DNA from: a virus
Reading direction: 5' to 3' (one strand)
IMG/VR virus record: IMGVR_UViG_3300035157_000972
DNA: 64,000 nucleotides
The translations under genes were made by a program, and so were the position numbers. The notes beneath the pieces are model-generated. The model did not search any database, was not told the origin of the DNA, and was given only the letters and a program-made list of their open reading frames with translations. Position 1 is the first letter of the stretch. Each line of letters opens with the position of its first letter. Positions 21,235 to 27,210 of this stretch are shown here, in pieces.

Positions 21235-21260
21235 AATAAGGTTATAAAAACTTGATATAT

Positions 21261-21286
21261 AAGGGGACTAGACAGTCCCCTTTTTT
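21261..21286 (+). terminator. Rho-independent terminator after the fibre gene
   Basis: AAGGGGACT-agac-AGTCCCCTT followed by T run. Confidence 0.85.
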
Positions 21287-21296
21287 ATTGTTTACT

Positions 21297-21500
21297 ATGG
21301 ATCCTGAAGTACAAGCATTGATTGCAGTTTACCAAAAAAGATTGGCAGATGTAACTGCACAAGCGATTGCTTATGAAGCAAGAATTTCAATTTTGGCGAA
21401 ACAAATACAAGAATTAACACAACAACCTCCTATCCCAGAACCTCCTGCACCACAGAAAAAAACAGCAAGAACTAAAAAAACAGACGCTGGAACGTTTTAG
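21297..21500 (+). CDS. Small coiled-coil hypothetical protein (possible fibre chaperone)
   Basis: ATG at 21297 just after the terminator; MDPEVQALIAVYQKRL..., ends DAGTF. Confidence 0.65.
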   Translation: MDPEVQALIAVYQKRLADVTAQAIAYEARISILAKQIQELTQQPPIPEPPAPQKKTARTKKTDAGTF

Positions 21501-21503
21501 ATT

Positions 21504-21517
21504 GTAACGATCTATAC
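21504..21517. promoter_or_regulatory. NtcA-like box GTA-N8-TAC
   Basis: GTA ACGATCTA TAC, 8 nt upstream of a consensus -35. Confidence 0.45.
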
Positions 21518-21525
21518 GGTTTTCC

Positions 21526-21554
21526 TTGACAATAAGTATTAATTTTTTTATAAT
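21526..21554 (+). promoter_or_regulatory. Consensus sigma70-type (early) promoter
   Basis: TTGACA(21526)-17 nt-TATAAT(21549). Confidence 0.85.
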
Positions 21555-21578
21555 TAGTTATGTGTTCATTTCAAAACA

Positions 21579-21737
21579 ATGCATAACAGAGAAGTATCTT
21601 TCAACAATCTCCGTGCATGGACTGCGGAGGGCGAAAATCTATTTTCAGAGGATCCCATTGATGACTACTTTGAGTGTATATCAGAATGTTCCCCTGTAGA
21701 TAAACAATGTATAACATCATGTAGAACTTTATTGTAA
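21579..21737 (+). CDS. 52-aa Cys-rich small protein (CxxxC-x6-CxxxC); not in ORF track
   Basis: Hand translation MHNREVSFNNLRAWTAEGENLFSEDPIDDYFECISECSPVDKQCITSCRTLL; directly behind the promoter and 3 nt before the next ATG; resembles a small protein family of marine picocyanobacteria/cyanophages (from memory). Confidence 0.8.
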   Translation: MHNREVSFNNLRAWTAEGENLFSEDPIDDYFECISECSPVDKQCITSCRTLL

Positions 21738-21740
21738 TCT

Positions 21741-22259
21741 ATGGAATCTTATTTTAATGGTAAGTGGTCAGACAGCAGTTTCGATTCGTATAAGTGGTCT
21801 GGTTACCGATTGGTCGATGAAGTAAATTCCCATAATCCTCATTCTGTATTAGACGTAGGTTGTGGTTTCAACAGATTGAAAGGAAAAATAAACAACTTGG
21901 TCGGCATCGACCCGTACAATGATTATGCTGACATAAAAGTATCTCTAGAAGATTACAACGGTGGACCCGTAGACATAGTATTATGTCTTGGGTCTATTAA
22001 TTTTGGAGACGATTATACTATCAATAAACAAATTGATATACTAGACAATATCTGGCACAAGAGAGCATACTTCAGAGTCAATCCCGGCATAGAGCATACA
22101 TGGCATGACAAGTCAGACTGGGACGGAATCGTTTGGTATGACTGGACTCGTTCAAAAATTAACAGTATTGTTGCTAACTACAAATATCACTTAGGTAGGT
22201 TTGAAGAAGAATATACAACACAAGGTCATAAACGCTACTACTTTGAATTATATAAATAA
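21741..22259 (+). CDS. Class I SAM-dependent methyltransferase-like protein
   Basis: Motif I VLDVGCGFN, VGIDP acidic strand end, DIVLCLGSINF. Confidence 0.75.
   Translation: MESYFNGKWSDSSFDSYKWSGYRLVDEVNSHNPHSVLDVGCGFNRLKGKINNLVGIDPYNDYADIKVSLEDYNGGPVDIVLCLGSINFGDDYTINKQIDILDNIWHKRAYFRVNPGIEHTWHDKSDWDGIVWYDWTRSKINSIVANYKYHLGRFEEEYTTQGHKRYYFELYK
22251..22258 (+). promoter_or_regulatory. T4 gp55-type late promoter
   Basis: Exact TATAAATA, 27 nt before ATG 22285. Confidence 0.7.
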
Positions 22260-22284
22260 CAATGTAATTACAAGTAATACAACA

Positions 22285-22959
22285 ATGTTATCTGGAACCG
22301 ATTTCGTAAAGAAAATCAAAGAAGGAAACAAAGAATTATTTGAAGCATCTCGCTCAAATGTTCGTCGTTTCTTCGAGTCTAAACCAAGCGACGAATACTT
22401 AGTAGAGCACTTCCGTGGACGTATGGTCAACGAAGCTCAGAACATGTATGCAATCGCAGGACAAGTTGCATCAGCAGATCCTTCAACAGACGTAAGAGAT
22501 CTAGAATTACTTTCTAAGCAAGCAATGGATGAAGCGAAGCACTTCAGAATGGTAAAGGAAGTTATCGAGCATATCACTGGTGAAGAACTAGACGTTGCTG
22601 CTGCCTTCGCTGCAGAAGCAGAAGCACCACAAGCAAAGGGTGCATCTCTTCTTGAGAAGTATGAAGCATCTAATGATGAAGCAGCACTTGCAGCATATCA
22701 GTTAGTTGCTGAAGGAAGAGCAGAAGCAGTATGGAACGAAATGGCAGAATGTGTAGAAGATAGATTTATTTCTTCTCGCTATGCATCTATTGCTAAAGAC
22801 GAAGGATTCCACTCAAACTTAGGTGGACGTTCACTTTCAAAATTAGTTGAAGGTAGCGAAGCACTTCAGTCACACGTACTTGCATTAGTAGAAAGAATGA
22901 GAGCAGACCTCCTAGAGATCAGCAATCAGAACACTGCTACTCCTCTTGCCGTTGTGTAA
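22285..22959 (+). CDS. Ferritin-like four-helix diiron-carboxylate protein
   Basis: Ligand pattern E (NEAQN) - DEAKH - E (AEGRA) - DEGFH; all-helical; ATG 22285 preferred over TTG 22201. Confidence 0.75.
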   Translation: MLSGTDFVKKIKEGNKELFEASRSNVRRFFESKPSDEYLVEHFRGRMVNEAQNMYAIAGQVASADPSTDVRDLELLSKQAMDEAKHFRMVKEVIEHITGEELDVAAAFAAEAEAPQAKGASLLEKYEASNDEAALAAYQLVAEGRAEAVWNEMAECVEDRFISSRYASIAKDEGFHSNLGGRSLSKLVEGSEALQSHVLALVERMRADLLEISNQNTATPLAVV

Positions 22960-23572
22960 AGGGTTCTCTACCCCTTCGGATTTCTTTGTCTAACCAATGC
23001 TCTTTGCATGGAAAGACATACTTATGATTGGCATCGACGCTTATAAAGTTGTCGATGCCTTTTTTTGTGACTGGAAATTCTAGCATACGACCAAGATATT
23101 CAATATACTTTTCTTTGTATAAGAAGAATGCTTCATGATCTATGAAATGCACTGCCATATCTTTATAGTAATCAAGAGCAATATCCATAGTGCACTCACC
23201 ACCAACTCTTACTTGTTGTAGTTCGTTTATATTTCTATCTCTTACAATTACTGCTATGATTGGCATTACACCTAATTCAAATGCTCTCATAGCAACTTCT
23301 TTTACCTTTGGGGTTTGTCTTACACCATTGTAAAAGAAAGGCACACTGACATTGGCACAGAAGTAATCTCCATCTGCAAATGTCTCCTTAGTCATCTTCT
23401 CTGGGTTTACCCAATATTGTGCAAATGGTTCTTCGTCACTAGGAACCCAGTACTTATCATGAAGACTTTCCCACCCAATTACATTCTCATGTAGTGAGAA
23501 TAGTCTTGCAAATAGATGATTTCCTGATCCTTGTGGACCTGTTACGATTAGTAGTTTTTTCATTAGCAGCAC
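22937..23572 (-). CDS. P-loop sulfotransferase/kinase-like protein, paralogue 2
   Basis: LLIVTGPQGSGNHLFARLF resembles the sulfotransferase 5'-PSB / P-loop; IAVIVRD strand; true start probably the ATG at 23563. Confidence 0.6.
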   Translation of the reverse strand: MLLMKKLLIVTGPQGSGNHLFARLFSLHENVIGWESLHDKYWVPSDEEPFAQYWVNPEKMTKETFADGDYFCANVSVPFFYNGVRQTPKVKEVAMRAFELGVMPIIAVIVRDRNINELQQVRVGGECTMDIALDYYKDMAVHFIDHEAFFLYKEKYIEYLGRMLEFPVTKKGIDNFISVDANHKYVFPCKEHWLDKEIRRGREPFTQRQEE

Positions 23573-24285
23573 CTCCCGTTTGAACCTTCATCATATGCAT
23601 GATCGGTATCTTTTGTTATTGGTTTCTTTGCATCGGGATGATTCGGATCCCATAAGAAAGGAACTCCAGTCTTGTTACCATCATCTAATGGATTCTCTTT
23701 TACATAATTGATATACTTTGCATTAGCATCTCTTTCTAATATCTCATTTACTCTTTTATCATACCAAGCGATAGGGAAACCAAGATTTAATGATTTCAAA
23801 TACTCTTGTTTGTAAAGATATAATAATTCGTAACTTAAAAATGATGGACATGGAAACGCTCCTTGTATTTCTTTCAAGGCATCATAGAAATGTCTTATAG
23901 TAGATTCTTCTCTTATTCTTTTCTGTTGGTTTTCTAGTATTGTTTGATCTCTACCTATCACACATATCTTTACTTTCATTCCCAAACTCTCTGCCTTCAA
24001 TCCAAACTCTTTGATGTCAGGACACCACTTAGTTCCTTTGCTCTCTATGCCAAGTGGGACACTGATGCTAGTAAAGTAATGATCGTGTGAACTAAAGTCA
24101 AATTGGGATAGTAATTCTGGATTTCTCCAACATGCAGCAAATGGTTCGGAATATCTGTGTGCTTCCCAGTAGTTGTCTAATAAGGACTTCCAACCAAATA
24201 CATCTTCATGTAAAGAGAATATTTTAGACCACAGATGATTGCCTGATCCTTGTGGACCCGTTAGTATGGCAAGAGTTTTCATCAT
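23563..24285 (-). CDS. P-loop sulfotransferase/kinase-like protein, paralogue 1
   Basis: LAILTGPQGSGNHLWSKIFSLH, EPFA, SVP, CVIGRD..ILE.QQ.R and FLSYELL align with the neighbouring paralogue. Confidence 0.6.
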   Translation of the reverse strand: MMKTLAILTGPQGSGNHLWSKIFSLHEDVFGWKSLLDNYWEAHRYSEPFAACWRNPELLSQFDFSSHDHYFTSISVPLGIESKGTKWCPDIKEFGLKAESLGMKVKICVIGRDQTILENQQKRIREESTIRHFYDALKEIQGAFPCPSFLSYELLYLYKQEYLKSLNLGFPIAWYDKRVNEILERDANAKYINYVKENPLDDGNKTGVPFLWDPNHPDAKKPITKDTDHAYDEGSNGRCC

Positions 24286-24304
24286 ATAATATCAGTTACA
24301 ACTA

Positions 24305-24333
24305 ATTATAACACATAAATAGTGGCACAACAA
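24305..24333 (-). promoter_or_regulatory. Extended -10 promoter for the minus-strand P-loop pair
   Basis: Minus strand TTGTTG-17 nt-TATAAT with TG extension (TGTTATAAT), ~20 nt before the start codon. Confidence 0.55.
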
Positions 24334-26310: not shown

Positions 26311-27210
26311 ATGGCAGACCATCTAACCACAGAATTACCAGATGACGACATGCTCAACTATAGAGAGGAATTCATTCTCTATGGTTTGAGGCAGTTAGGT
26401 CATCCTGTCGTGGAAGTCAATATTGCAGATGAGCAGATAGAAGAAGTGATGCAAGACACCATATCATTTTTTCAAAACAGACATATGGATGGTGTGGAGA
26501 AAGTATATCTAAAACATAAAGTTCCAGAAAACTTTATCAAAAGGGTAGGTGGAAGAGCAGATGACAATACTATAGGTATCAAAACCACCACATCAAATCA
26601 ATACAGTAGAGGTGGAGATATTGTTGGTTTGAGCACGACTGCTTTCGATTCATTTGAAGAGGATCAAAATTTTATTGTTATACCTGATGCTGTTATTGGT
26701 ATAGAGAAAGTTTGGAAATTAGACAACCGTGCTATCAGCACTAACATGTTTAGTGTCAACTATCAATTATTTTTGAACGAGATATACTATTTCAGTAGTA
26801 CTGAAGTATTGAATTATTCTATGACAAAAAGATATCTTGAGGATCTTGATTTTATATTACATCCAGATAAACAAATAAGATATAACAGAAGACGAAATCG
26901 ATTATATATTGATACTGATAAAGGTAGTTTACAAGAAGATGATTATTTGATCATTCAATGCTATAGGGCAATTCATCCCAACGAAGTTGGTAATAGAATA
27001 TATGGAGATATATTCTTTAGGAGATACTTTACTGCTTTGCTAAAACGTCAGTGGGGACAAAACCTCATGAAGTTTCAAGGTGTAAAAATGCCGGGTGGTA
27101 TGGAACTAAATGGTAGACAAATATGGGAGGATGGTACAGCAGAACTAGAGAAGTTGGAGTCTCGTATGAATATGGATTACGAATTACCTCCACTTGATTT
27201 TATTGGATAA
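26311..27210 (+). CDS. gp13: Neck protein gp13
   Basis: LRQLGHPVVEVN; KRQWGQNLMKFQGVKMPGG; ELPPLDFIG. Confidence 0.92.
   Translation: MADHLTTELPDDDMLNYREEFILYGLRQLGHPVVEVNIADEQIEEVMQDTISFFQNRHMDGVEKVYLKHKVPENFIKRVGGRADDNTIGIKTTTSNQYSRGGDIVGLSTTAFDSFEEDQNFIVIPDAVIGIEKVWKLDNRAISTNMFSVNYQLFLNEIYYFSSTEVLNYSMTKRYLEDLDFILHPDKQIRYNRRRNRLYIDTDKGSLQEDDYLIIQCYRAIHPNEVGNRIYGDIFFRRYFTALLKRQWGQNLMKFQGVKMPGGMELNGRQIWEDGTAELEKLESRMNMDYELPPLDFIG

Follow-up and report, generated by a model that had tools for sequence, protein, structure and literature searches.

T4-like cyanomyoviruses carry auxiliary metabolic genes such as psbA, hli, pebS/pcyA, PTOX, and pstS as accessory non-structural genes in variable regions of their genomes, and one of the encoded proteins, PTOX, is a di-iron carboxylate protein. 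In a different setting, the tailoring set for Nod factors comprises the sulfotransferase NodH, NodPQ for synthesis of the sulfate donor 3'-phosphoadenosine-5'-phosphosulfate (PAPS), the methyltransferase NodS, and the carbamoyltransferase NodU. Here, we describe a cassette on the IMG/VR virus record IMGVR_UViG_3300035157_000972, a stretch of 64,000 nucleotides of viral DNA (hereafter the window), that comes closest to two known groups of enzymes. Two of its genes, E and D, encode paralogues resembling PAPS sulfotransferases (tyrosylprotein sulfotransferases or TPSTs, the heparan-sulfate enzymes NDST and 3-OST, the OLS/CurM domain, and Stf0/StaL; Pfam families Sulfotransfer_1/3), and a third, FER, encodes a relative of ferritin-like di-iron oxygenases (PaaA, AurF/CmlI, aldehyde-deformylating oxygenase (ADO), ribonucleotide reductase (RNR) R2, and MiaE). 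Together with MT, encoding a methyltransferase-like protein, these genes are passed on as a set at one fixed locus in marine T4-like cyanomyoviruses that form a large uncultured group, and parts of the set recur together in unrelated viral contigs, once as a gene fusion.

A profile of E and D was used to fetch 80 related loci from IMG/VR, onto which all proteins of the window were mapped, and about 50 of these loci include enough flanking sequence to read the wider gene order. The succession of gp13, a fibre gene, E, D, the convergent FER, and MT is the same in loci L001 to L006 and in all IMG/VR loci with sufficiently long flanks (about 50 of the 80), and contigs of 50 to 190 kb show a fibre gene, E, D, convergent FER and MT, a small coiled-coil open reading frame (ORF), and another fibre gene in this order. 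Insertions of 0.6 to 4.5 kb are found at the E/D, FER/MT, and MT/fibre junctions, and none of the four genes is ever lost. The convergent overlap of exactly 23 nt between the ends of D and FER, which an earlier reading of the window from its letters alone (the sequence-only reading) had pointed out and which we confirm, is retained in 37 of 41 non-redundant related loci. That reading had proposed the enzyme genes as one cassette and their co-occurrence as a check, and the invariant order in about 50 loci indeed marks the four as a linked unit and not as chance neighbours. Homologues are numerous in ocean metagenomes (1487 for E, 2352 for FER, and 1832 for MT).

All four enzyme genes are under purifying selection, with median ratios of nonsynonymous to synonymous divergence (pN/pS) of 0.13 for FER, 0.25 for D, 0.26 for E, and 0.40 for MT compared to 0.30 for gp13. 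FER is the most constrained member of the module, with a median amino acid identity of 92%, whereas the other three genes range from 55% to 74% and gp13 stands at 61%. Since synonymous sites are saturated in the most distant loci (pS 0.7 to 0.8), this conservation reflects selection and not recent transfer. In loci of intermediate distance, pS of FER lies below that of its neighbours, which may be due to codon-usage constraint or recombination.

The same families meet again in distant lineages. Protein P0249 is a Rosetta-stone fusion in which a P-loop domain is joined to an MT domain sharing 36% identity with the MT of the window, which aligns with its C-terminal half, and the contig that encodes it (L091) also harbours a second P-loop paralogue, two more MT-like genes, an Amidohydro_2 enzyme, a TctC-like protein, and TctA. 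On L089 and L090, genes for MT-like (38% identity), FER (63%), and P-loop (49%) proteins lie within 6 kb, and 600 bp upstream of the MT-like gene an adenosine 5'-phosphosulfate (APS) kinase gene (PF01583) is followed by a gene for a 137-aa HxGH nucleotidyltransferase-like protein with weak matches to ATP sulfurylase and cytidylyltransferases (E-values 0.004 to 0.007). TctA, two TctC-like proteins with signal peptides, DUF2061, and a carbamoyltransferase are encoded beside this module as well, and TctA together with TctC-like proteins carrying signal peptides is common to L089, L091, and L093. Positions 1 to 16705 of L089 (a contig of 471,898 bp) place three of the families amid APS kinase, carbamoyltransferase, a CMAS-like methyltransferase, TctA, a radical SAM protein, and ORFs with DxD motifs; the latter were read by eye as possible glycosyltransferases, and Pfam scans of two of them (L089_241 and L089_234b) gave no family. 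Finally, L088 shows a row of a cupin gene, a D-like gene (57%), FER (57%) directly after it, and a class I glutamine amidotransferase gene. We considered this pair of FER and D-like genes as a trait of Nitrosopumilaceae and rejected the idea, because among 151 genomes only the metagenome-assembled genome with L088 carries it (0 of 150 relatives); a pattern scan of 185,579 species genomes likewise returned the L088 locus only, and its contig is probably viral or mis-binned.

E and D are 39% identical (E-value 1e-45) and have the motifs GPQGSGNHL, EPFA, SxP, and RD in common, much as the sequence-only reading had it. When an AlphaFold2 model of E (predicted local distance difference test score, pLDDT, of 86) was compared to 48,161 PDB representatives with VIA, the 12 best matches were all sulfotransferases with moderate Z values of 8.1 to 10.4, headed by the sulfotransferase domain of OLS (4gox; Z 10.4, root mean square deviation 3.9, 171 aligned residues) and 3ap3 (Z 10.4) and including TPST1/2, NDST1, 3-OST5, Stf9, and StaL, with alignments running from residue 1 to about 197 to 224. 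P-loop kinases do not exceed Z 7.8, and their alignments end near residue 171. Foldseek, BFVD, and the ESM Atlas concur on a sulfotransferase-like fold, and the nearest Atlas families beyond the own viral clusters of E are Sulfotransfer_3. The glycine-rich loop of E (G10-P-Q-G-S-G-N16-H17) is nearly invariant and has the shape of a Walker A or 5'-phosphosulfate-binding (PSB) loop with Asn-His instead of Thr-Thr, while an invariant R112-D113 follows the strand formed by residues 104 to 111 and Gln120 stands at +8, where the Ser of the 3'-phosphate-binding (3'-PB) motif would be expected.

By sequence, the E/D family stands apart. Searches with 20 members gave no Pfam match at an E-value of up to 10, sequence and profile searches of the PDB gave no informative match, and BFVD held no close relative of E. 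Since a profile search of 1.8 billion representatives returned only 237 clusters, the family is compact; the largest ESM Atlas cluster matching E (9,886 members) is 99% viral, as are 99% to 100% of the members of the Atlas family clusters. Judged from sequence and model, E and D would therefore be described as sulfotransferase-like and cannot be filed as sulfotransferases.

Co-folding of E (residues 1 to 215) with D gave an ipSAE of 0.82 (0.81 to 0.83 in three runs) against 0.00 for the best control. Among reference pairs, 58 of 80 solved complexes attained this mark, as did 2 of 110 mismatched pairs, and this kind of score cannot tell hetero- from homodimers of close paralogues. At least 75% of contacts are common to the runs, with a partner pLDDT of at least 81, and the E/D family is thus predicted to dimerise in the modelled way. 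The predicted interface is pseudo-symmetric (R112-D113, E153, and D186-x-N188-x-K190-Y191 of E with R111-D112, E147, and D180 to Y185 of D), and it is built from motifs common to both paralogues (RD and DANxKY), with loop residue P11 also in contact. The RD motif may hence serve, at least partly, in dimerisation, and the interface may have the active site beside it. We favour a heterodimer because the two genes appear to be coupled in translation by a TAATG junction and because both copies are strictly retained. At the C-terminus of E (23566-23680, minus strand), we observed a tail of about 35 residues predicted with low confidence whose last two residues are Cys-Cys; most E-type orthologues have this terminal Cys-Cys, in some cases with xDKPCxC after it, and it is absent from D and from shorter E-like forms. 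A role of such a flexible tail in redox reactions or metal handling is conceivable. One closely related contig harbours a third GPQGSGNH paralogue between E and D that is 43% identical to E (L008:4376-4987).

FER has intact di-iron ligands in an E/ExxH/E/ExxH pattern (E50, E83, H86, E143, E173, and H176) that are invariant in 18 homologues, and its AlphaFold2 model (pLDDT 91.5) places them on helices 36-62, 70-98, 132-156, and 160-188. VIA matches include 8fhc_B, a ferritin-like protein with ADO activity (Z 16.3; 191 aligned residues, root mean square deviation 3.2), chain 3pvr_B of the PaaAC subcomplex (Z 14.2), and RNR R2 and the methane monooxygenase hydroxylase MMOH (Z 12 to 13); the haem-oxygenase-like proteins TenA, CADD, and UndA are about equally close (Z 14.6 to 16.3, with TenA at 16.3). 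Sub-threshold Pfam matches to PaaA_PaaC, Ferritin_2, AurF, and RNR-R2 were obtained for 5 to 11 of the 18 members (PaaA_PaaC for 11, best E-value 3e-4). It is the invariant ligand pattern together with these weak and consistent matches that places FER in the ferritin-like clan, and sequence and model agree with the earlier proposal of a ferritin-like protein at the level of the di-iron superfamily, below the threshold of every single family. Haem-oxygenase-like di-iron oxidases, whose fold is very similar to that of FER (Z 14.6 to 15.7), bind their metals through ExxH ... E ... HxxxDxxH, a set of three His and three carboxylates, and we rejected such an enzyme (CADD, UndA, SznF) for FER because its last ligand helix carries ExxH and not HxxxDxxH. 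A match to the beta chain of C-phycocyanin (E-value 0.004 with the single sequence and 0.033 with the profile) was dismissed as compositional, given that the model is a ferritin-type bundle with di-iron ligands.

MT keeps motif I (VLDVGCG, with D38, G40, C41, and G42 invariant) and the acidic residue of strand beta2 (D57 in GIDPYN, also invariant), in line with the initial assignment as a class I S-adenosylmethionine (SAM) methyltransferase-like protein, which its sequence suggests. The MT of the window has no Pfam match, and sequence and profile searches of the PDB were uninformative for it; below cut-off, its homologue on L089 matches Methyltransf_23 (E-value 1.7e-5) and P0249 matches Methyltransf_11/25 (E-value 0.004), and Atlas neighbours of MT carry Methyltransf_11/23. 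A match of the MT profile to 8qai was ignored, being to a designed coiled coil with no passing stretch. We also rejected analogies of the pairing of MT with a di-iron protein to ChlM/AcsF of chlorophyll synthesis and to Coq3/Coq7 of quinone synthesis, for which there is no profile similarity and which do not fit the occurrence of the module outside cyanophage-like contexts.

The two promoters described previously, TTGACA-17-TATAAT ahead of the peptide gene and MT and an extended -10 element ahead of E, are both there in the sequence, and we additionally predict a T4-type late-promoter-like element, TATAAATA, ahead of FER (Table 1). The start of FER is ATG 22285; initiation at TTG 22201 is unlikely because homologues have 221 to 224 residues. 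D most likely starts at the ATG that overlaps the stop codon of E as TAATG and is preceded by GGAGG 8 nt upstream, an arrangement from which E and D appear to be translationally coupled. In RNA, contigs from two marine metatranscriptome runs of two studies cover FER (22291-22925; k-mer depth up to 970), and parts of E are covered at a depth of 4 to 6 in one of these runs and in a third run from a third study. Such contigs cannot rank the genes, as relatives map to the conserved FER and the neighbours fall below the identity cut-off, and they may include DNA carry-over, so that they are a weak hint that FER-like genes are transcribed; the missing cover over MT and D is uninformative.

Insertions within the cyanomyovirus loci bear on what the module may act on. 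In 9 loci, E and D are separated by inserted genes for DctP (E-value 6e-46, apparently lacking a signal peptide) and DUF2061, 13 loci contain paralogues of 348 to 376 aa with a PSB-like loop (GxGW[AS]ATT) and a classical RDPVRRxFS motif, and a second P-loop family (GIPGSGWAK) and a PP-loop-like ORF are present in 4 and 3 loci, respectively. A profile comparison of the GPQGSGNH family with the inserted RDPVRR paralogues using hhalign was not significant (E-value 0.41). In two loci (L005:6682-11031 and L067:10783-13260), three RDPVRRxFS paralogues, DctP, DUF2061, and a 379-aa ORF with a SGGxDS-like PP-loop motif lie between E and D, and in six related phages this place holds a ferredoxin-dependent bilin reductase gene (PF05996, E-value 1.7e-17; e.g., L080:10819-11457). 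DUF2061 and a solute-binding protein thus accompany the module in each of two lineages, although the binding proteins belong to different families (DctP versus TctC), and because this recurrence is otherwise hard to explain, it points to a soluble anionic ligand.

We tentatively favour, as falling a little short of probable, the explanation that E, D, FER, and MT are one virus-borne module that tailors a small molecule, with E and D using a nucleotide donor (most likely PAPS), FER oxidising, and MT methylating a small carboxylate or sulfonate. E and D would be made in equal amounts by translational coupling and would form a pseudo-symmetric heterodimer of sulfotransferase-like fold whose GPQGSGNH loop would bind the phosphosulfate or phosphate of the donor. 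PAPS is the likely donor given the fold, the co-travelling paralogues that look like canonical sulfotransferases, and the APS kinase of L089. FER, as an O2-activating di-iron enzyme, would hydroxylate or otherwise oxidise the same substrate that MT would methylate with SAM, and this substrate would most likely be a small anionic metabolite (carboxylate or sulfonate) in the infected cell and not the adjacent peptide, and probably not the fibres. We infer this chemistry of oxidation, methylation, and sulfation.

Several observations weigh against this explanation. No member of the module reaches the threshold of a curated family. The sequence-only reading had likened the loop of E and D to those of sulfotransferases and nucleoside monophosphate (NMP) kinases; the sulfotransferase fold is borne out and ranks above NMP kinases, but there is no match to a sulfotransferase profile and the loop has neither the Lys/Arg of sulfotransferases (PKSGTT or RSGTT), so that PAPS binding is no more than putative and the chemistry may differ, nor the Walker A signature GxxxxGK[ST], having an invariant Asn in the place of Lys and a His in that of Ser/Thr. 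The RD motif, present in both paralogues as noted before, resembles a 3'-PB site but is predicted to sit in the E-D interface, so that it cannot be taken simply as a site for the 3'-phosphate of PAPS; the co-folding score, moreover, does not distinguish a heterodimer from homodimers of such close paralogues. L091 and L093 carry the P-loop family without FER within 8 to 10 kb, and the island of the cyanomyoviruses also gathers unrelated genes (bilin reductase, peptide), which means that some neighbours are uninformative. A search of five related viral records, including a complete one, gave no APS kinase (PF01583), and cyanomyoviruses would have to depend on PAPS of the host.

Other explanations fit parts of the data. 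The module might instead modify a macromolecular surface by sulfation, methylation, or hydroxylation, either the flanking virion fibres or a glycan or lipid of the host envelope (receptor masking, superinfection exclusion), as its fixed site between two fibre-like genes in all cyanomyovirus loci, the late-promoter-like element ahead of FER, tyrosylprotein and heparan-sulfate sulfotransferases among the best fold matches of E, and the carbamoyltransferase (by Pfam) and DxD-like ORFs of L089 would suggest. We consider this unlikely: L088 to L093 hold the families without any fibre gene, the fibre-proximal region is a general insertion hot spot (bilin reductase, DctP, peptide), the MT and E/D units have sigma-70-type, early-like promoters, and the solute-binding proteins and TctA indicate a soluble ligand. 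Of the substrates proposed from sequence, the fibres are thus weakened, as the families are accompanied in distant lineages by genes for transporters and PAPS supply and not by fibre genes, and a product of the type of ribosomally synthesized and post-translationally modified peptides (RiPPs) is rejected. For the latter, in which the enzymes would act on the Cys-rich peptide, speaks that its gene lies directly upstream of MT behind the same promoter in the window. However, the peptide (a match to phrog_665, E-value 5.5e-9) is missing from most loci that keep all four enzymes, being present in only 5 related loci (L010, L011, L013, L031, and L032), and it has homologues in phages P-TIM68, S-SSM4, and S-SSM6b, for which tblastn gave no match to any of the enzymes. 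As the sequence-only reading had allowed, the peptide is a passenger outside the enzyme module, and its role as their substrate is very improbable.

It is also conceivable, and in our view quite unlikely, that there is no single pathway: FER would be a stand-alone abundant late protein for iron handling, oxidative-stress protection, or structure, E and D would be nucleotide-binding regulators or kinases, and all would be co-inherited in a recombination-cold pocket of a hypervariable island. The identity of FER far above that of its neighbours and of gp13, its own predicted late-type promoter, the missing canonical Lys/Arg of E and D, and the P-loop members without FER in L091 and L093 are as one would expect from this, but gene order and overlap have outlasted saturated synonymous divergence (pS about 0.7 to 0.8) and multiple independent insertions, L088 and L089 bring the families together again with other gene orders, and the P-loop::MT fusion joins two of them. 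Modification of nucleic acid (tRNA or phage DNA), with MiaA or 5-hydroxymethyldeoxyuridine DNA kinase, MiaE, and RNA or DNA methyltransferases as analogues, draws on lower-ranked fold matches of E to tRNA/adenylate isopentenyltransferases (Z 7.5 to 7.8), PSTK (Z 7.8), and polynucleotide kinases, on weak MiaE matches of 2 of 18 FER homologues (E-value 0.05), and on insignificant matches of MT to CmoB and an rRNA methylase (E-values 0.09 to 0.19). These matches all either score lower than the sulfotransferases or lack statistical significance, the Lys of the Walker motif that MiaA and kinases require is missing, and the context of transporter, binding protein, and APS kinase does not fit, which makes this improbable.

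The window itself belongs to a T4-like cyanomyovirus, with DNA 3' of the cassette matching the gp13/gp14/gp15 neck and the terminase genes of Prochlorococcus and Synechococcus myoviruses, and it also encodes a "cyanophage outer membrane protein-like" domain. The cassette lies between a fibre gene with an Mtd_N domain and a fibre-like gene that is followed by the gp13/14/15 neck genes, and all five ORFs that the sequence-only reading had described are present as it described them (Table 1).

Table 1. Features of the cassette and its surroundings in the window
Feature	Position	Strand	Remarks
Upstream fibre protein, 970 aa	18322-21234		Mtd_N domain
Sigma-70-type promoter TTGACA-17-TATAAT	21526-21554	+	Predicted; -10 at 21549-21554; ahead of peptide and MT; 12/12 consensus match
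52-aa peptide, two CxxxC	21579-21737	+	phrog_665
MT, class I SAM-methyltransferase-like, 172 aa	21741-22259	+	
T4-type late-promoter-like element	22251-22258	+	Predicted; 26 nt upstream of FER ATG, overlaps MT stop
FER, ferritin-like di-iron carboxylate protein, 224 aa from ATG	22285-22959	+	
Convergent 3'-end overlap of FER and D, 23 nt	22937-22959		
D, sulfotransferase-fold paralogue	22937-23563	-	208 aa from ATG 23563; ORF 22937-23572, 211 aa from GTG 23572
E, sulfotransferase-fold paralogue, 240 aa	23563-24285	-	Disordered tail ending Cys-Cys
Extended -10, TGtTATAAT	24313-24305	-	Predicted, read from sequence; 20 nt upstream of E ATG
Downstream fibre-like protein, 641-656 aa	24322/24367-26292		Just upstream of gp13
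gp13 neck protein	26311-27207		

The translation of the upstream fibre gene shows three near-identical internal repeats of the form ...GSGAGLSAGT.P.T.LDIDG.TDIGADL.D.DLL.VDDGAGGTNRKTAMSRVK.YVLGGGSGATFA.INVTGI.... Directly after this gene, many loci keep the small coiled-coil ORF (21252-21500 in the window; with a homologue in L001), the product of which may be a fibre assembly factor. A strong terminator-like hairpin with a T-run at 21261-21282 falls inside the listed TTG-start version of this ORF, the true start of which is probably an internal ATG near 21297 (MDPEVQ...).

These enzyme families, which have no Pfam family and no solved structure, sit in abundant T4-like cyanomyoviruses that infect the main primary producers of the ocean. 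Should the module produce or remove a metabolite that is sulfated and methylated, a multi-step virus-specific reaction would join the auxiliary metabolic genes, and two new enzyme families would be defined. The binding proteins that accompany the module, DctP without a signal peptide and those of the TctC-like type, offer a direct experimental route to the substrate. A bolder form of the small-molecule explanation, which we regard as doubtful, is a widespread virus-only pathway around an enzyme of a new kind. This enzyme would be an obligate heterodimer of sulfotransferase fold with the catalytic Lys replaced by Asn-His, and it might either combine residues of both chains in an active site at the interface or use another donor than PAPS; together with a new, extremely conserved, highly transcribed FER and with MT, it would make or destroy a specific anionic metabolite in infected marine picocyanobacteria. 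If true, auxiliary metabolism would gain a new class, which could matter biogeochemically.

Searches for described relatives returned little. Pfam, NCBIfam, and PADLOC scans of the five proteins of the window gave nothing significant, tblastn of E, FER, and MT against 50,697 deposited phage records (among which the window's own record may have been withheld) gave no match except a partial MT-like one in a single-cell marine virus, a DNA search matched the fibre flank only, and we found no paper on this cassette in the literature. The cassette differs from the auxiliary genes of cyanophages in being a multi-gene module, as opposed to one gene borrowed from a host, for which no cellular homologue was found (185,579 species genomes; one hit, and 0 of 150 relatives).

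Like PAPS sulfotransferases, E is predicted to have an alpha/beta fold over residues 1 to 199 with a glycine-rich loop after strand 1 and an Arg-Asp after the strand of the 3'-PB motif, and the predicted E-D dimer has a parallel in TPST. Unlike them, E and D have no profile match and no catalytic Lys/Arg, with Asn-His for Thr-Thr and Gln for the 3'-PB Ser, and their RD motif is predicted to lie in the dimer interface of what looks like an obligate heterodimer of paralogues. FER has the E/ExxH/E/ExxH pattern on two helix pairs in common with ferritin-like di-iron oxygenases, as well as Z values of 13 to 16 to ADO-active ferritin-like proteins and PaaAC and weak, consistent Pfam matches within the clan, but it remains below every family threshold, is restricted to viruses and unusually conserved, and has no evident reductase partner. 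In gene content, with no sequence relationship to Nod proteins seen, the extended set of L089 recalls Nod-type decoration of one scaffold with small groups, combining APS kinase, the HxGH gene, methyltransferases, a carbamoyltransferase, and a sulfotransferase-fold protein, to which it adds a di-iron protein and solute-binding and transport genes. The folds are known, and what appears to be new is a Lys-less heterodimeric sulfotransferase-fold family, a very conserved viral ferritin-like family, and their fixed association.

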